In this document: in pieces, positions 13,443-20,448 of the stretch
Numbering within the stretch: the first letter of the stretch is position 1
Layout: every line of letters starts with the position of its first letter
Source: a virus
Lineage: Duplodnaviria; Heunggongvirae; Uroviricota; Caudoviricetes
Reading direction: 5' to 3' (one strand)
DNA length: 64,000 nucleotides
IMG/VR virus record: IMGVR_UViG_3300022822_000008
Notes under the pieces: model-generated
Database searches by the model: none
The model's input: the letters and a program-made list of their open reading frames with translations, nothing else
What the model was told of the DNA's origin: nothing
Position numbers and translations under genes: made by a program

Positions 13443-13661
13443 TTATTTTATTGATTCTACTAGTTGATCATATCCACCTATTGCAATTCTATTGCGAGTT
13501 ATTTGTGGATATGTTTTTGCTTTGGGGAACATCATCAGCATTTCTTCTCTGGTGAAGTCCTCATCTAGTTGTAAGTATTTATATTCCAAATTATTAATCT
13601 CACAAAACACTTTAGCTCTGTCACAAAAAGTACATTCAGCTTTACCGTATATTTCTATCAT
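13443..13661 (-). CDS. nrdC: Glutaredoxin
   Basis: CTFC active site, TYPQI, IGGYDQL. Confidence 0.92.
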   Translation of the reverse strand: MIEIYGKAECTFCDRAKVFCEINNLEYKYLQLDEDFTREEMLMMFPKAKTYPQITRNRIAIGGYDQLVESIK

Positions 13662-14785
13662 AATGAAAATCCTGTAAAAGTATTGTTATCAACGTCTTGC
13701 TTAGTTCCGCCCGAGACGTAAGAACTAATTTCAGTTTCCTGTGGTGCAACTTGAACATCGCCACCTTTAATCCAGCTTTTTGTCCAAGGTAGTGGATTTG
13801 TCTTAACGTTATAAGGACAAGGTAAACCTACATTCCGCATTCTGTCTGTAACGATAAATTCAACATATTCAGATAATAATTGAGCATTCAAACCAATCAT
13901 AGATCCATCTTTAAACAAATATTCGGCCCAGTCTTTTTCTTGATTGGCAGCATCAAGAAACATTTGGACACATTCGTCTTCAGTTTCCGCAGCAATCTTT
14001 ATATAGTCTGGATCGTCTTTTTTCAATATTCTTAATAACATTTGTGTAGATGCAAGATGTAAATTTTCATCACGAGCGATTAGCTTAATTATAGTAGCAT
14101 TACCTACCATTTTTTTCAATTCACCGAACGCCCATGAACAAGCAAACGAAACATAGAATCTGACGCCTTCAAGAATGTTAACACTCATTAGCGCCAACCA
14201 AAGCATTTTTTTCAATTCGTACATATCTACTGTTATTTTCTCACCATTAATTGTATGAGTACCTACACCCAGCAAATTATACCAGCGACCCATTTTAATA
14301 AGGTTATCATAATAGTGACTTATACTGTCTGCACATTTTACAATTTCAGGTATGTTCATTATCTCATCAAAGATTTTACTTGGATTATTATATACATTGC
14401 GAATGATATGAGTATAAGAACGAGAATGTATAGTTTCGCTGAATGTCCATGTTGTTACCCAATTTTCAATTTCTGGTAGAGAGACGATTGGATTAAACGC
14501 TTCTACAGGTGCGCGGCCTTGTACTGTATCAAGTACGATTTGTCTTTTTAAGTTTGTAGTGAAAATGTGCTGTTCGTGGTCTGTTAAAGATTTAAAATCA
14601 GAAGCATCTTTAGTGATGTCTACTTCTTCAGGTCTCCAAAAATATCCCAATTGCCTTTCTGTTAATTTGTCAAGTGTTTTATATTTTAGCGTATCGTAGC
14701 GCTGAATAGTTGGGCCACCTTCGGGATCAAAGAATGCAGACGCCAAGGTATGGTCTTGTTTATTATTAGTGTTTAAAACGCTCAT
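13658..14785 (-). CDS. nrdB: Class Ia ribonucleotide reductase beta subunit
   Basis: FWRPEEVD, LDTVQG, ETIHSRSY, LEGVRFYVSF, RDENLH, VAPQETEISSY. Confidence 0.96.
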   Translation of the reverse strand: MSVLNTNNKQDHTLASAFFDPEGGPTIQRYDTLKYKTLDKLTERQLGYFWRPEEVDITKDASDFKSLTDHEQHIFTTNLKRQIVLDTVQGRAPVEAFNPIVSLPEIENWVTTWTFSETIHSRSYTHIIRNVYNNPSKIFDEIMNIPEIVKCADSISHYYDNLIKMGRWYNLLGVGTHTINGEKITVDMYELKKMLWLALMSVNILEGVRFYVSFACSWAFGELKKMVGNATIIKLIARDENLHLASTQMLLRILKKDDPDYIKIAAETEDECVQMFLDAANQEKDWAEYLFKDGSMIGLNAQLLSEYVEFIVTDRMRNVGLPCPYNVKTNPLPWTKSWIKGGDVQVAPQETEISSYVSGGTKQDVDNNTFTGFSL

Positions 14786-14808
14786 TCGGTTCCTTTTTTA
14801 TTTGAATA

Positions 14809-14828
14809 AGGTGCTCGAATGAACACCT
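14809..14828 (-). terminator. Hairpin between nrdA C-terminal gene and nrdB
   Basis: AGGTGTTC-ATTC-GAGCACCT followed by TATT. Confidence 0.45.
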
Positions 14829-14843
14829 GGACACTTATTTATA

Positions 14844-15869
14844 TTAGATTTTACAACCGTCACAATCTTCTTCTTCATCTTCCGTAACGGGAAGTTCACC
14901 CATAATTGCACCTACATCTAGTTCACCCTGACCGTCCATAGTCTGGAAATAATAAAGTTGTTTACCTCCGTACTTATAAAAGAATAATACATGTTGCAAC
15001 ATTAAACTCATTGGGATTTTTTCATCTTCATAATTTTCAGGATTATAAGACGTGTTAACACTTATTCCTTGGTCAATGTATTTTTGCAACACAGCAACTA
15101 TTTTAAGATATCCGATAGGAGATTCTTGTTGCCACAACAAATCGTATTTATTCTTTAGACGTTTGAACTCAGGAACGACTTGTTTCAGTACACCGTGTTT
15201 TGAAGATTTTACACTAATCAAGGCGCGGGGTGGTTCAATTCCATTTGTTGCATTAGCAATTTGAGCACTAGTTTCTGCAGGCATAAGTGCCATCAAAGTG
15301 GAATTTCGGATGCCAGTCAATCGTAACTGATCGCGCAGTTCATCCCAAGGCATTCTTTCTACGTGGACAATTAATTCGTCCAATTCCTTTTTGTAAGTTT
15401 GATTTGGTGTAATACCCTGTCCGTATTTAGTTTCAGAATTACCAGAACAAGCACCGCGTTCTGATGCCAAATCTGCGCTTGTTTTGATTAACCAATATGA
15501 CCAAGCTTCAGCGTATTCGTCGATTAATGCGAGACCTTCGTCTGTGATAAATTGATAAGAGAGGTCATTTTTAGCTAACCAATATGCAAAGTTAATTATA
15601 CCAATGCCTAGAGGTCTTCGTTTCATCGTAGACAATTGTGCTGCTAATACAGGGTAATTTTGATAATCAAGTAACTCGTCAAGTCCTCGAACAGCTAAAT
15701 CACAAACTCGTTTAAAGTCAGCAGGCGTTTTTATGTTGCCCCAATTTATTGCGCTAAGTGTACACAGCGAAATTTCAGATTTCGAGTCAGACATCACTTC
15801 TTCCATGACGTATACGTAATCGCCATCATTATCTATTTCAGTTGCTATTTCGTATTCAAAGTTGTTCAT
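14844..15869 (-). CDS. nrdA: RNR alpha subunit, fragment 3 (C-terminal part with acidic N-terminal leader)
   Basis: EISLCTLSAIN (Cys462 equivalent), RRPLGIG, ALMPAETS, KQLYYF, C-terminal CDGCKI; alternative start MSDSKSEI possible. Confidence 0.92.
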   Translation of the reverse strand: MNNFEYEIATEIDNDGDYVYVMEEVMSDSKSEISLCTLSAINWGNIKTPADFKRVCDLAVRGLDELLDYQNYPVLAAQLSTMKRRPLGIGIINFAYWLAKNDLSYQFITDEGLALIDEYAEAWSYWLIKTSADLASERGACSGNSETKYGQGITPNQTYKKELDELIVHVERMPWDELRDQLRLTGIRNSTLMALMPAETSAQIANATNGIEPPRALISVKSSKHGVLKQVVPEFKRLKNKYDLLWQQESPIGYLKIVAVLQKYIDQGISVNTSYNPENYEDEKIPMSLMLQHVLFFYKYGGKQLYYFQTMDGQGELDVGAIMGELPVTEDEEEDCDGCKI

Positions 15870-16740
15870 GTATTACCTTTTTAATGTGTTTTGTATAATT
15901 GCCTAAATCCCATTCTCTTTTGCAGCATATACAGGATATCTTTTTGCCTATCAAGTGACCTGTACCGCCAGCATTTAATTTCATCTTCTCTTTGGTTTCT
16001 TTAGAATGTTTCTTACCTTTACGGGATTCGCTCATTTTTTTTCTAGTTTCTTCACTGACATTCTGAACTCCAATCTTTCCTTTATTCCACGGCGTATGTC
16101 CTTTAAGAGATATACTTAAATTCTCTTTGTGTTTATCGGAAAAGGGTTTTTTCGGAATTCCCTTTTGAGCATCACTTAATTTTCTTTTGTGTTCATCACT
16201 AAGACCATCCTTAGACGGATTGTTTTCTGTCATGCGAACAGAAGTATCTATAGAATGTTTTTCAGTAGTCCAGTTGTGTTCTCCTGTTAAAACTCTTTGT
16301 CTCTGTATATCGGACATACGATTTTTGGATTCTTCACTTCTAATTTTTCCAGCATTAGATGCTGATATCCTTTCTGCAATTACAGTACCCCTTACTTCCC
16401 TTCCAAGTGACGGACTGATTTTATTATATATTGACTTAGAATTATTCCATACTTCCCAGTCGTTTCTGTATAAAAGTTTTGTGTTTACTTTGCATTCATA
16501 ATCACGAGCCTCTCCTACAGTATCAAACGTCCAGCAAATTCTATAGGTATAATCTAATATATTGTATTTAAAATCAGTACGTAATTTGCCGCTGGAAAAA
16601 TATTTCAAAGCAAAATCGTGATCTGGCGAAGTTGAATTTCGTACATTTGCCCACCTTACGCCATGATATTTCTGTCCTGTGATGTTATTTTTAAAATAGT
16701 ATGTGTATGGGTATATTTCTGTAAATTTTTTGTGTTTCAT
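15856..16740 (-). mobile_element. Free-standing GIY-YIG-like homing endonuclease with NUMOD3 repeats
   Basis: PYTYYFKN..GQKYHGVR, H.EHKRKLS, PWNKGK, SEETRKKMSES.KGK, terminal CICC...H. Confidence 0.8.
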
Positions 16741-16767
16741 AATAGCACTCCTTTGCCATTATTTATA
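16739..16767 (-). promoter_or_regulatory. Late promoter TATAAATA overlapping a hairpin that encloses the endonuclease SD
   Basis: TATAAATA at 16760-16767; ATAATGGCA-AAGGAG-TGCTATTAT(G). Confidence 0.7.
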
Positions 16768-16785
16768 ATATTACGTTACTTGCGT

Positions 16786-17037
16786 TTAATTGCGGTGAAT
16801 TGGAGTTTTCGGGTTCATTTCTCGCCATTTCAGATATTTTTTATGTTCTGCCTTTGTCATGCGTATTAAGGCAGGTTCTGGAGCTCCGTCATTAATGTCA
16901 TTTAAAGGTTTTGTTGGTAAATCTATTTCCGCGCAATTATGTACCAGTATCCCATTTGCGAAGAAATTCTCATTACCCTGCACTGTAATATCATATACAG
17001 ACTCTGTTTCTGTCAATCTTTGAATCTTAATACCCAT
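16786..17037 (-). CDS. nrdA: RNR alpha subunit, fragment 2: split-intein C-part (16936-17037) + CAEIDLPTKPLNDIND + basic tail
   Basis: SVYDITVQGNENFFANGILVHN|C intein C-terminal motif; +1 Cys is the NLCxE catalytic Cys. Confidence 0.9.
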   Translation of the reverse strand: MGIKIQRLTETESVYDITVQGNENFFANGILVHNCAEIDLPTKPLNDINDGAPEPALIRMTKAEHKKYLKWREMNPKTPIHRN

Positions 17038-17746
17038 ATTTTCTTCCTATCGTCCAACCCAAAGGTTGTTTATTTTCGTTAAATTGTTTAGAAGTACCAG
17101 ACGTTTCGTTGCTGTACCATCTCTTATTCATGTTCGCCTCTGAAAGTTTTCGTTTATGTTCATCTGTCTTTTTATATTTAAAACAACTAATGTCTAGATT
17201 ATACTTTTCACAATACGACTTCTTAAATCCCAAATCGCCAAATCTATTTTTCGAATATGATTTAGGCATGTTGAACTCTTTGGCAGAGTATATCACAAAT
17301 TTACTCACATTCATATCATTATCTGAAAAATAAACATGAGCACATTCTAAAATTTCTTCGTCCGTATAACCACACCAGCGTCCGTTGTGTTCCTTTGTGG
17401 AAGTTTTTGAAATTTTAACAGCCCATTCGTCGTATTTTTCAGCAGGTACACACCAGCCGCCATCTCCACCTTCAGTCGAATTGTACCCAGTCTTGAAAGT
17501 ATCAAAAAGTTTTATGTAGTGTATTTCCATATCGGTAGCGTCTTTTTTAGAGTAACCTTCCCACAATATCTTAGATACGAAATCATCTAGGCCATATTTT
17601 CTTATCGCTTTATAGAAGTGCGTATCCATATTCGACATTGCATTAATGTAATGTTTGTGCAGTCGACCTTTTAATCCTAAACTGGTATAACCTATATATT
17701 TTTTGCCAGATGTGTTTGATTTGTGTTCATAAACAGTATATTTCAT
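17027..17746 (-). mobile_element. Free-standing GIY-YIG homing endonuclease
   Basis: TVY..K...SGKKYIGYT, FYKAIRKYG..DF, E.HYIK.FDT...GYN.TEGG. Confidence 0.88.
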
Positions 17747-17758
17747 TTTGCGTCCTTC

Positions 17759-17802
17759 GTAGGTAGATATATCTATTTATAATTTAAGATATATCTACCT
17801 AC
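17759..17802 (-). promoter_or_regulatory. Perfect 16 bp inverted repeat with late promoter TATAAATA in the loop
   Basis: GTAGGTAGATATATCT (17759-17774) / AGATATATCTACCTAC (17787-17802); TATAAATA at 17774-17781 minus. Confidence 0.8.
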
Positions 17803-17812
17803 AAACTAGCAA

Positions 17813-19429
17813 TTAAAATATAAGCAGCTCGTCGTCTTCGTTCAATTCACCTGCGATAACATAACCGCGATTCTTTGTAAAGATTTTATGGTCAACAGTA
17901 CAACGAATAGATTTGCCAGTTGCATCATCAGTAATCAATAATAACTTAGCATTTTCAGACATACATTTTCCAGCAGTGACTAATTTGTATTCATATTCAC
18001 CTTTCTCAATATTATATGATTTTACCTTAACCTCGCCAGAAGAGTTAACAACATCATACAAACTCACATCGAATTTAGGTTCTCCATCAATAATACAATC
18101 TAAAGTCACATCACCAGCCAAACATAAATTAGATTGTCTAATCGGTGCTTTTTCGGCTATGAAACTGCCATGATCATTAGCATTATCTACGTTTTGTAAA
18201 TAAATTCGACCTGTGTTTTTTCTTTCTTCCATAAAGGAACTGAACAATTGAATTGCCGGAACTGTCTTTTTACGTATGCTAGTTTTACGTTCTGCCTTTT
18301 CATATAGAATTTTAAATTTGTCTTGATCTGCAAAAAATGACTCGTACAATCCAGGCACATCACTTGGTGAGAATAGAGTAATATTTCCGCCAGTAATTAG
18401 CCTTTCGTACATCAGTTTATTAAATTGAATTCCATAATCCATATGACGGACTCTATTTTCTTCAGTACCTTTATTATTCTTCAGTACTAGCAAATCTTCA
18501 ATATCTAAACGCCAGATGGGATGATAAATTGTCGCAGCACCGCCTCTCACTCCACCTTGACTGCAAGATTTAACAGCTGTTTGAAAATGCTTATAGAATG
18601 GTATTATACCTGTGTGGAATGCGTCACCCTTGCGAATTGGAGAACCTACAGTACGTATTGAGCCTCCACCGATTCCTATACCTGCTTTTTGTGAAACATA
18701 TTTGACAATAGCCGAAGCAGTTGCGTTTATAGAATCCAAACTATCACCTGCTTCTATTAACACACAAGAACTAAATTGCCTTTGTGGCGTGCGAACACCT
18801 GCCATGACTGGAGTAGGCAAACTAATGTCATGTTGACTGATTGCATCGTAATAATCTTTTACGTATTTAAGTCTTGTTTTTTCTGGATAGTTATGAAACA
18901 AAGTTGCTGCAATTAGTATATAACACATCTGAGGAGTTTCGAAAATTTCACCAGTCACTCGGTTTTGTGATAAATACTTGCCGCGAAGTTGTTCCATTGC
19001 TACATAGGTTAAATCTTCATCACGGTCGTGTTTGATAAAGTTGTTAATTTTATTCCATTCAGCTTCGGTATAGTGTGACTCAAGTTCTGGATCATAAAAT
19101 CCGCGTTTTGTGTTTAGTCTTATTAAGTCGATAAGTGGAGATGGTGTATAACATCCATAAACTTCTTGACGAAGTGCGTAGTTTATTAATCTGCCTCCAA
19201 CTTTATCATAGTTCGGAGTTTCTTCTGTAATCAAATCAGCTGCGGCTTTGATTAGAGTTTCTTGTATTTCTTTGGAGTGTATACCATCATAAAATTGTAT
19301 TTGACTTTTCATTTCTACTGCGCTTGCAAAAACTCCTGTTATATTTTCGCAAGCATGAATAACTACTTTATGTAATTTTTCTACATTTAACGGCTCTTTG
19401 CCACCATCGCGTTTCGTAACTTGTATCAT
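17813..19429 (-). CDS. nrdA: RNR alpha subunit, fragment 1 (N-terminal) + split-intein N-part (17816-18124)
   Basis: ATP cone VTKRDG, TPVMAG, QFSSCVL, GGVRGGAA, RQSNL|CLAGD; intein block B IRCTVDHKIFT. Confidence 0.93.
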   Translation of the reverse strand: MIQVTKRDGGKEPLNVEKLHKVVIHACENITGVFASAVEMKSQIQFYDGIHSKEIQETLIKAAADLITEETPNYDKVGGRLINYALRQEVYGCYTPSPLIDLIRLNTKRGFYDPELESHYTEAEWNKINNFIKHDRDEDLTYVAMEQLRGKYLSQNRVTGEIFETPQMCYILIAATLFHNYPEKTRLKYVKDYYDAISQHDISLPTPVMAGVRTPQRQFSSCVLIEAGDSLDSINATASAIVKYVSQKAGIGIGGGSIRTVGSPIRKGDAFHTGIIPFYKHFQTAVKSCSQGGVRGGAATIYHPIWRLDIEDLLVLKNNKGTEENRVRHMDYGIQFNKLMYERLITGGNITLFSPSDVPGLYESFFADQDKFKILYEKAERKTSIRKKTVPAIQLFSSFMEERKNTGRIYLQNVDNANDHGSFIAEKAPIRQSNLCLAGDVTLDCIIDGEPKFDVSLYDVVNSSGEVKVKSYNIEKGEYEYKLVTAGKCMSENAKLLLITDDATGKSIRCTVDHKIFTKNRGYVIAGELNEDDELLIF

Positions 19430-20448
19430 GTTTTCTTCCATTCTGTTAATTTTATTTTTGCGGTTAGACCCTGATATGTATTTGAGTTAATAACTTCTTC
19501 AACATCAGCAACACCATTCAGAATCATTTCATTAATATCTTTACCAGGTATATTACTGGGCCATATGCATATTTGGTGTCCTGCTTCAATAGTTTTTTCC
19601 ATACGTCTATGTATATCTTTATTCCTAGGTTCAGCATCATACACCCACACAGATTTTTGAATATTTTTAAGGCCTTTTATATTTCCATCAGCACCTGCCA
19701 TTGCAAGAGCATTACTAAGAAACATGCTGTCAATAGCACCTTCAACCAAGTGATATTTTTTCCTGAAATCAATACAGTCAAGACCATATAATTTAGGCAT
19801 ATCACAAAACATAATAGAATAATATCTTATTCCGTCGGGGTCAAAACCTCTAGCTGAACATCCGAATATTTTCCCATCTTCGTCAAGGAAAGGCAGAACC
19901 AACCTAGGTTCATCTTTACCCACAATTTCGAATTTACCAGGCAAAATATCATTGATCCAAGCTCTAAACTTTGGAGCATAATACATTCGATAATGATGAT
20001 CTGGAGGTACCATACGTTTATTAATATATTTTTTAAGCGGATGATTCCATTCCAGTTGACTAATCTTCTTCAACTTCTTTAACGGGTCTTTATCAAATAC
20101 TGGTGCTTTGTGCATTTCTTTATCTTCGATAGATTGCGATTCATCTACTTTCTTAGGTTTTTCATCTTTCCTTATAAACTTCTCTGCTACCCAATCATTA
20201 TAAATCATGATGTCCATTTCTTTTAAGAACTGCCCATATGATCTACTTTGGCCGCAATTATGACAAAAATAGTAAAGACGATTGTCTTTCTCTATGAGCC
20301 ATCCGCGGGTTTTCGAGCGTGTTTTTTCTGAATCTCCACAAAGAGGACAGCGAAAATTTATTTTATACGGGACTGTTGACTTGATACGGAATCCATCAAG
20401 TCGGAAGGATAACATTTGAGCATACTGTATATCAACAAAATCAATCAT
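19426..20448 (-). CDS. 61: DNA primase gp61
   Basis: FRCPLCGDS...CHNCG Zn finger, VEGAIDSMF, KDINEM. Confidence 0.95.
   Translation of the reverse strand: MIDFVDIQYAQMLSFRLDGFRIKSTVPYKINFRCPLCGDSEKTRSKTRGWLIEKDNRLYYFCHNCGQSRSYGQFLKEMDIMIYNDWVAEKFIRKDEKPKKVDESQSIEDKEMHKAPVFDKDPLKKLKKISQLEWNHPLKKYINKRMVPPDHHYRMYYAPKFRAWINDILPGKFEIVGKDEPRLVLPFLDEDGKIFGCSARGFDPDGIRYYSIMFCDMPKLYGLDCIDFRKKYHLVEGAIDSMFLSNALAMAGADGNIKGLKNIQKSVWVYDAEPRNKDIHRRMEKTIEAGHQICIWPSNIPGKDINEMILNGVADVEEVINSNTYQGLTAKIKLTEWKKT

Follow-up and report, generated by a model that had tools for sequence, protein, structure and literature searches.

Three nrdA pieces in a salt-lake phage: a split intein and a probably tail-bridged open break in one ribonucleotide reductase active site

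Phage genes for the large subunit of ribonucleotide reductase (RNR), nrdA, have been found in pieces, and two mechanisms by which the broken enzyme is rescued have been described separately. Fractured nrdA genes with split inteins, NrdA-1 to NrdA-7, were reported from the Global Ocean Sampling (GOS) data (Dassa et al. 2009, PMC2677866), and in all seven the intein was inserted directly before the thiyl-radical Cys. The other mechanism is that of Aeromonas phage Aeh1, in which nrdA is split in the order nrdA-a/mobE/nrdA-b between the equivalents of Glu441 and Cys462 of Escherichia coli NrdA, with Cys431 and Glu433 on NrdA-a and Cys31 on NrdA-b (Crona et al. 2011, PMC3045599; this genes-in-pieces RNR is attributed there to Friedrich et al. 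2007). The two Aeh1 products remain separate chains in the active enzyme, and their tails were found to be essential for activity and for formation of the (aa/ab)2 complex (PMC3045599). The present analysis concerns an nrdA locus in a stretch of 64,000 nucleotides (nt) of IMG/VR virus record IMGVR_UViG_3300022822_000008, the whole of which is called the window below. An earlier note, made from the letters of this DNA, had claimed that the gene is broken twice within the active site, once by a split intein and once by an apparently unspliced break, and that the combination was undescribed. No description of a split intein together with an Aeh1-type open break was found in the literature searched, and to that extent the claim of novelty stands.

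The key conclusion is that a working class Ia RNR large subunit is probably made here from three polypeptides by two post-translational routes, the splicing, the assembly and the activity all being predicted from sequence. As far as the locus can be read, both rescue mechanisms would operate in one active site, as the earlier note had it. At the upstream break (break A) this is indicated by a complete set of class-1 intein residues and by an intein-free allele, and at the downstream break (break B) by an Aeh1-like loop, by the polarity of charge and by conserved tails.

Three gene pieces around one active site

The nrdA gene of the window consists of three minus-strand open reading frames (ORFs) with two free-standing endonuclease genes interposed, and the five-ORF arrangement proposed in the earlier note was recovered in full. 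Along the minus strand (13443-19441) the order is nrdA fragment 1, endonuclease 1, fragment 2, endonuclease 2, fragment 3, nrdB and a glutaredoxin gene. The only non-coding stretches among the five ORFs are a 66-nt spacer in front of endonuclease 1 and a 45-nt spacer in front of endonuclease 2. The pieces of nrdA and the genes between them, with lengths in amino acids (aa), are as follows.

17813-19441, minus strand: nrdA fragment 1 ORF, 542 aa.
18125..19441, minus strand: N-extein of fragment 1 (residues 1-439), comprising the ATP-cone, the all-alpha domain and the first barrel half and ending ...RQSNL.
17813..18124, minus strand: N-terminal intein half (IntN), 103 aa and stop, with Cys1 (CLAGD) and the block B T-x-x-H (CTVDHKIF); Pfam Intein_splicing.
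17027..17746, minus strand: endonuclease 1, a free-standing GIY-YIG homing endonuclease of 239 aa; Pfam GIY-YIG 5.2e-06; PHROG homing endonucleases.
16786-17037, minus strand: nrdA fragment 2 ORF, 83 aa.
16936..17037, minus strand: C-terminal intein half (IntC), 34 aa, ending ...GILVHN before Cys+1; Pfam Intein_splicing positions 125-155 of 155.
16888..16935, minus strand: micro-extein of fragment 2, 16 residues equivalent to E. coli 439-454, with the thiyl-radical Cys439 and Glu441.
16786..16887, minus strand: basic tail of fragment 2, 33 aa and stop, net charge +5, a member of a conserved tail family.
15856..16740, minus strand: endonuclease 2, 294 aa, with a probable SegE-like GIY-YIG N-domain and NUMOD3 repeats; Pfam NUMOD3 1.6e-13; PHROG 314.
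14844-15869, minus strand: nrdA fragment 3 ORF, 341 aa.
15777..15869, minus strand: acidic leader of fragment 3, 31 aa, net charge -8, with invariant Tyr6 and Tyr20.
14844..15776, minus strand: RNR part of fragment 3, equivalent to E. coli 458-761, with Cys462, Tyr730/731 and the C-terminal Cys pair.

Residues were mapped by phmmer against PDB chains, with E. coli NrdA as the reference. Residues 3-438 of the reference align with residues 3-439 of fragment 1, where the equivalents of Cys225 and Asn437 are present; residues 439-454, including Cys439 and Glu441, align with residues 35-50 of fragment 2; and the alignment resumes at 458 with residue 32 of fragment 3, which carries Cys462, Tyr730/731 and the C-terminal Cys pair. 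Break A falls directly before Cys439 and break B between Asp454 and Glu458, with 16 RNR residues between them. Both lie inside the RNR active site, around the radical-bearing cysteine, and all catalytic residues are present across the three pieces. The Pfam profile of the RNR barrel is divided in the same way, with positions 1-212 on fragment 1, which also carries the ATP-cone and the all-alpha domain, and positions 214-523 on fragment 3.

The allocation of catalytic residues to the three fragments made in the earlier note was borne out by these alignments, as was its description of fragment 2 as IntC, RNR residues and a 33-aa tail (Pfam, phmmer) and of fragment 3 as a non-RNR leader after which RNR sequence resumes. 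Its reading of fragment 1 as ...RQSNL followed by IntN also agrees with Pfam, but needs one correction of detail, since the N-extein ends at Leu439 and IntN is therefore 103 aa long.

Proposed mending of the two breaks

Break A is, judging from its sequence features, almost certainly mended by protein trans-splicing. Pfam detected Intein_splicing both at the end of fragment 1 and over residues 4-34 of fragment 2, and the class-1 splicing residues are complete: Cys1 (CLAGD), T-x-x-H (TVDH), the block F Asp (VYDIT), and His-Asn followed by Cys+1 (VHN, then C). IntN matches the NrdJ-1 split intein 8ubs (E 1.5e-10), while the start of fragment 2 matches the IntC ends of solved inteins. The intein +1 nucleophile had been equated in the earlier note with the thiyl-radical Cys, and IntC does end in His-Asn immediately before the Cys439 equivalent. 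The point of insertion is that of the GOS NrdA inteins (compared with PMC2677866), and endonuclease 1 lies between the intein halves, its 3' end overlapping the start of fragment 2 by 11 nt. The splicing residues are retained in relatives L002, L009 and L012 (L and P numbers are the working numbers of relatives). Across 14 relatives H33, N34 and C35 of IntC are invariant, and within the micro-extein C35, E37, I38, L40, P41 and T42 are invariant. The predicted trans-spliced product of 439+49 = 488 aa has exactly the length of NrdA-a in the intein-free relative L003 (P0130).

An allele without the intein was also found in nature. The public sequencing runs that hold the window are salt-lake metagenomes, and two of them, here X2 and X3, contain a less abundant contig that is ~85% identical to the window and exactly without the intein and endonuclease 1. 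In this contig 16929 is joined to 18126 with 7 bases between. Since the junction reads ...SNL-C-S-E... (Leu, then Cys-Ser-Glu), the empty site coincides exactly with the splice junction that was predicted, and the co-occurrence of the allele in X2 and X3 means that intein-plus and intein-minus populations coexist in one lake.

At break B the pieces are probably bridged by oppositely charged peptide tails. The polarity of charge is kept throughout, with values of +5 to +10 for the tails of 12 tail-bearing relatives and -7 to -15 for the leaders of 14 leader-bearing relatives. Conservation in the tail takes the form of Gly51, a K/R-rich strand and then an amphipathic helix; in the leader Tyr6 and Tyr20 are invariant and Glu7, Ile8 and Glu23 nearly so, and hydrophobic and aromatic positions are conserved in both. 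Comparison of the window with the 80%-identical L015 gave six synonymous changes and one non-synonymous change in the leader, and 74 and 36 respectively in the gene body, and by these sequence measures tails and leaders appear to be under selection. In an AlphaFold2 model of P0035, a relative in which tail and leader are fused, the tail was predicted to form a basic strand of nine residues and a helix, and the leader an acidic strand of nine residues, with a pLDDT (model confidence) of ~83-84, which suggests that the tail strand pairs with the leader strand. When this model was searched with Foldseek, E. coli-type NrdA structures alone were returned. A complex prediction for the tail (fragment 2 residues 47-83) and fragment 3 (score 0.14, mark 0.32) weighs neither way.

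The same tail and leader probably represent the Aeh1 cassette, a reading based on the site of the split, the charge polarity, a weak similarity of the tails and the presence of the C-terminal half of MobE in the break-B nucleases of relatives. The Aeh1 tail scores 14.1 bits against a hidden Markov model (HMM) of the tails built without Aeh1, a value reached by 2 of 2000 shuffles. When residues 1-75 of fragment 3 were compared by tblastn with 50,697 phage records, the alignment extended into the leader, among the matches listed, only in Aeh1.

Several observations must be set against this account of break B. The Aeh1 aa/ab heterodimer forms without the tails, which are needed for its dimerisation only (PMC3045599); as the heterodimer is independent of them, a picture in which the tails clamp the two fragments to each other may be incorrect in its details. 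The model of fused P0035 is mediocre overall, with a mean pLDDT of 62.7. The similarity of the leader to Aeh1 is not significant by HMM, a test that is uninformative for Aeh1 because acidic shuffles score as well. Endonuclease 2 of the window is unrelated to MobE, with no similarity, and only the C-terminal half is MobE-like in L005, L009 and L012. Given the unrelated endonuclease and the leader result, homology between the window and Aeh1 cassettes is therefore probable, not proven.

One further observation on the leader arose during alignment. MAFFT placed the acidic leader (15777-15869) on IntC (16936-17037), with LYEIV against VYDIT and then a hydrophobic strand. A leader derived from a degenerate IntC is unsupported, the profile-profile comparison by hhalign giving E 0.36 over 5 columns.

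All the features of break B read as those of a site that is spliced at neither the RNA nor the protein level. Phage RNR genes often carry self-splicing introns with endonuclease ORFs (PMC3653736), and fragments 2 and 3 might be made as one protein if endonuclease 2 were removed by an intron of group I or II or skipped by ribosomal bypassing. Such RNA-level repair has a probability close to nil. Between 14000 and 20500 no Rfam family was matched at E up to 1, barring one chance miRNA match, and no group I intron core was detected; the endonuclease ORF fills the gap save for the 45-nt spacer, which holds three in-frame stops; and tail and leader are conserved as protein. In L002, moreover, fragments 2 and 3 are still separate ORFs although they overlap directly, by 8 nt (ATGTTTAA), and no endonuclease gene intervenes; there is nothing to splice. 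Covalent healing by protein ligation, with tail and leader acting as a cryptic or atypical split intein or as some other ligation system and the mature enzyme forming a single chain, would agree with the degenerate-intein origin that Crona et al. raised for the Aeh1 tails (PMC3045599) and with the spontaneous MAFFT alignment of the leader with IntC blocks F and G. It is nevertheless very improbable. The tail is only 33 aa long and starts Gly-Ala-Pro, with no Cys, Ser or Thr in first place, and the leader neither ends in His-Asn nor is followed by a +1 nucleophile (the next residue is Glu, as in the window, or Ala), so that intein residues were not found at break B; Pfam found no intein on fragment 3, and the comparison of leader and IntC profiles was not significant, as noted above. 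Contiguous relatives keep the whole insert in frame, and the Aeh1 pieces are active as separate chains (PMC3045599).

It might also be that triple fragmentation has killed nrdA and that the phage uses the RNR of its host, a fate with some precedent in the intein-invaded nrdA genes of Campylobacter phages, some of which were suggested to be degenerating (PMC3653736). This is unlikely for the window, in which the catalytic residues are intact on all pieces, nrdB and the glutaredoxin gene are intact alongside, and synonymous changes exceed non-synonymous ones in both body and leader relative to L015; intact versions of the locus persist, moreover, at 46-82% protein identity in many samples. An assembly artefact had been named in the earlier note as something that could overturn its reading, and the lake does hold related alleles side by side, the intein-free variant of X2 and X3 among them, from which a chimera could arise with both breaks never present in one phage. 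This can be dismissed with near certainty. In both X2 and X3 the junctions are covered, with 0-2 differences, by a contig of 3469 nt spanning 14500-16929 (from fragment 3 through endonuclease 2 to fragment 2) and by one of 1288 nt spanning 16900-18187 (from IntC through endonuclease 1 to IntN). The locus is no assembly artefact, because contigs of two further runs bridge every junction and the layout was found in other samples, with five other contigs showing the whole of it. Fragment 2 in itself ties the breaks together, because a single 83-aa ORF starts with IntC and ends with the tail, a build shared by eight clusters at 90% identity.

The preferred reading, an enzyme made from three polypeptides by two routes, implies the following course of events. 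The three nrdA pieces would be translated separately, each from a start of its own, those of fragments 2 and 3 lying within the 3' ends of the endonuclease ORFs. The intein halves carried by fragment 1 (IntN) and fragment 2 (IntC) would associate and splice in trans, joining Leu439 to Cys+1, the equivalent of the thiyl-radical Cys439. The 488-aa product would correspond to NrdA-a of Aeh1-type phages, with the basic tail at its end, and would assemble non-covalently with the acidic-leader fragment 3 as the equivalent of NrdA-b. The resulting (aa/ab)2 complex would then bind NrdB, as has been established biochemically for Aeh1. On this scheme the two breaks would be independent mobile cassettes, intein and endonuclease at A and tail-endonuclease-leader at B, gained and lost separately within this group of phages.

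Relatives and endonucleases

Relatives were collected by word-indexed and exhaustive protein searches together with contig look-ups. The earlier note had suggested looking for genomes with zero, one or two of the insertions, and every combination of intein and break-B cassette was found. Many relatives have neither element, their contiguous NrdA having the plain loop ...ND-PEG-EISLC. The split intein occurs alone in L014 and also in P0055, P0063, P0076 and P0091, and break B alone, with an endonuclease, in L003, L005 and Aeh1. L002 has both breaks with no endonuclease at site B. Both breaks with two endonucleases, the five-gene layout of the window, are present in at least five further contigs from metagenomes, namely L009-L011 (three samples), L012 and L013; since these belong to several divergent metagenomic phages, the window is not alone in having this layout. 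Two further states were encountered in which tail and leader are not separated. In P0035/L001 (L001:45-1757) they are fused in frame within an intein-free contiguous NrdA as an insert of ~80 aa, and in P0151 (441 aa) IntC is followed by a C-extein with the unsplit tail-leader insert, giving a split intein with a fused insert. Comparison of L001 with L012 showed that the endonuclease cassette (L012 5013-5781) is exactly absent and that CAA stands in place of the tail stop TAA.

ORFs of the fragment 2 type fall into at least six clusters at 50% identity, and in eight clusters at 90% identity IntC and tail are combined in one ORF. Three subtypes of tail and leader were distinguished, each of which is found in intein-bearing and in intein-free loci, and the intein and the tail/leader cassette therefore move independently. 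The tail/leader pair itself hosts three kinds of endonuclease among the relatives, or none. A region-limited word search for further NrdA-a tails returned 2 proteins alone. Neither the P0035 insert nor endonuclease 2 gave a tblastn match in the phage records, for which low-complexity filtering and short flanks are probably responsible. A separate observation concerns L012, where the third nrdA piece (L012:5787-6746, onward to the contig end at 7376) stops after the MPSE motif (~E. coli Glu623) and is followed by a Cys-initial IntN-like sequence and a further ORF; the nrdA of L012 therefore apparently comprises at least four pieces, interrupted by two split inteins and a tail-bridged break.

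Both endonucleases of the window had been taken in the earlier note to be of GIY-YIG type. For endonuclease 1 this is confirmed by Pfam (27.1 bits against a cut-off of 22.6), and the protein is 63-64% identical to the same-site endonucleases of L002 and L014. For endonuclease 2 the assignment was not matched by any profile: NUMOD3 is the sole Pfam match, the N-domain has none, and comparison with the endonuclease 1 family by hhalign gave a probability of 3%. Motif reading and ESM Atlas look-alikes (SegE_GIY-YIG at 0.96, with 181 shared features; structure TM 0.6-0.79) nevertheless make a SegE-like GIY-YIG N-domain probable. Endonuclease 2 is 63% identical to the L003 endonuclease and 89% identical to that of L015, and the last 14 nt of its ORF are shared with the start of fragment 3. 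The signals upstream of the two endonuclease genes, and the genes downstream of nrdA, are as follows.

17756..17805, minus strand: 19-bp hairpin immediately upstream of endonuclease 1, from sequence and folding energy.
16760..16767, minus strand: TATAAATA late-promoter-like motif, 19 nt upstream of the endonuclease 2 start codon, from sequence.
13658-14785, minus strand: nrdB, downstream of nrdA, intact.
13443-13661, minus strand: glutaredoxin/NrdC-like gene, downstream of nrdB, intact.

The hairpin upstream of endonuclease 1 is strong (-29.4 kcal/mol, z -7.9, with none of 200 shuffles as good). A T4-late-promoter-like TATAAATA (17774-17781) lies in its loop and 3' arm, and the first bases of the endonuclease 1 ribosome site GAAGGA are paired within it. 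Upstream of endonuclease 2 the hairpin is weak (-8.5 kcal/mol, z -1.9). The TATAAATA motifs and the hairpin point to expression of the endonucleases that would be restricted to late infection, and a regulatory role for such a hairpin has a precedent in Aeh1 mobE, as cited in PMC2677866.

It was also observed that endonucleases at the same nrdA site share a C-terminal, DNA-binding half while their nuclease domains differ, being either HNH or GIY-YIG. At site B, residues 97-236 of Aeh1 MobE (L008:2948-3661) are 37-39% identical (E ~1e-21) to the C-terminal halves of the GIY-YIG endonucleases L005:5241-6008, L009:5324-6076 and L012:5042-5803. At site A, the C-terminal half of the HNH endonuclease L009:4102-5010 recurs in the GIY-YIG endonucleases of the window (17027-17746), L002 and L014 (E 4e-4 to 3e-6). 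It follows that nuclease domains have been exchanged on DNA-binding halves that are specific to the site, and that the intein or tails alongside have stayed in place. A second observation was that endonuclease 2 and the leader are closer to L015:1-879 than is the body of nrdA: the endonuclease proteins are 89% identical and 24 of the 31 codons of the leader are the same, whereas the body is 82% identical as protein. Such a pattern would be expected from co-conversion around an endonuclease that had spread recently. Finally, in the fragment-2-type ORFs P0134 and P0142 the tails continue into remnants of the C-terminus of a site-B endonuclease (NPSTMSAVARGKR and LSMYKLRKL motifs), which suggests endonuclease genes decaying in place.

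The source of the window is an uncultured T4-like salt-lake phage. Its closest NrdA match, at 65%, is in a T4-like Stenotrophomonas phage, and megablast of the locus against the 50,697 phage records gave no match at the DNA level, so there is no close cultured relative among them. Short-sided contig joints (20-33 nt) were seen in several runs at 15670>18444, 16930>18444 and 18489>18794, and probably come from other organisms that share conserved nrdA words.

Comparison with known systems

Two rescue mechanisms 16 residues apart indicate how far selfish DNA can fragment an essential active site that is still kept by selection. The natural series of relatives, with neither break, either or both, with the nuclease lost or with the tails fused, makes the origin and role of the Aeh1 tails testable, a question left by Crona et al. 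2011. A bolder proposal, on balance rather doubtful, is that the pair of basic tail and acidic leader is a portable non-catalytic assembly module, independent of the endonuclease and perhaps the last remnant of a split intein. Such a module would extend from Aeh1 to salt-lake phages and accommodate at least three nuclease types, existing split, nuclease-free or fused as an 80-aa loop insert. It would make an essential enzyme tolerant of fracture, so that the 16-residue active-site finger could be brought into place through trans-splicing at break A and through a charge-zipper beta-ribbon at break B. At a practical level the locus provides a new NrdA-site split intein, and the short natural peptide pair might serve in split-protein complementation.

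The closest described system is Aeh1. In both phages the split lies in the same loop (Glu441-Cys462), the upstream piece ends in a basic C-terminal tail and the downstream piece begins with an acidic N-terminal one, an endonuclease gene between the pieces overlaps the downstream start, and there is no splicing. The window differs in that its upstream piece is split again by an intein 16 residues earlier, in its SegE-like/NUMOD3 endonuclease 2, where Aeh1 has the HNH endonuclease MobE, and in a loop before the tail that is six residues longer. The GOS NrdA genes resemble break A in that their split intein immediately precedes the thiyl-radical Cys, that a free-standing GIY-YIG endonuclease gene separates the halves and overlaps the IntC ORF with its 3' end, and that a TATAAATA-bearing hairpin lies upstream of the endonuclease. 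Their C-extein is, however, the entire remainder of NrdA, whereas that of the window is a 49-aa stub (16 RNR residues and the tail) and a third gene supplies the rest.

Other RNR genes have been interrupted several times, namely nrdE of SPbeta (an intron and an intein), nrdE of Brochothrix phage A9 (four ORFs) and nrdA of Campylobacter phage IBB_35 (two inteins) (PMC3653736). As in the window, several independent mobile elements have entered one RNR gene, but all of those elements restore a single chain by RNA or protein splicing, whereas the window keeps one break open. Outside RNR the nearest parallel is T4 topoisomerase, in which gp39 and gp60 are split by mobA and bear tail-like extensions with a proposed role (PMC3045599). 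Here too an essential enzyme is split in association with an endonuclease and bears extensions of opposite charge, although the enzyme is a different one and has no intein.

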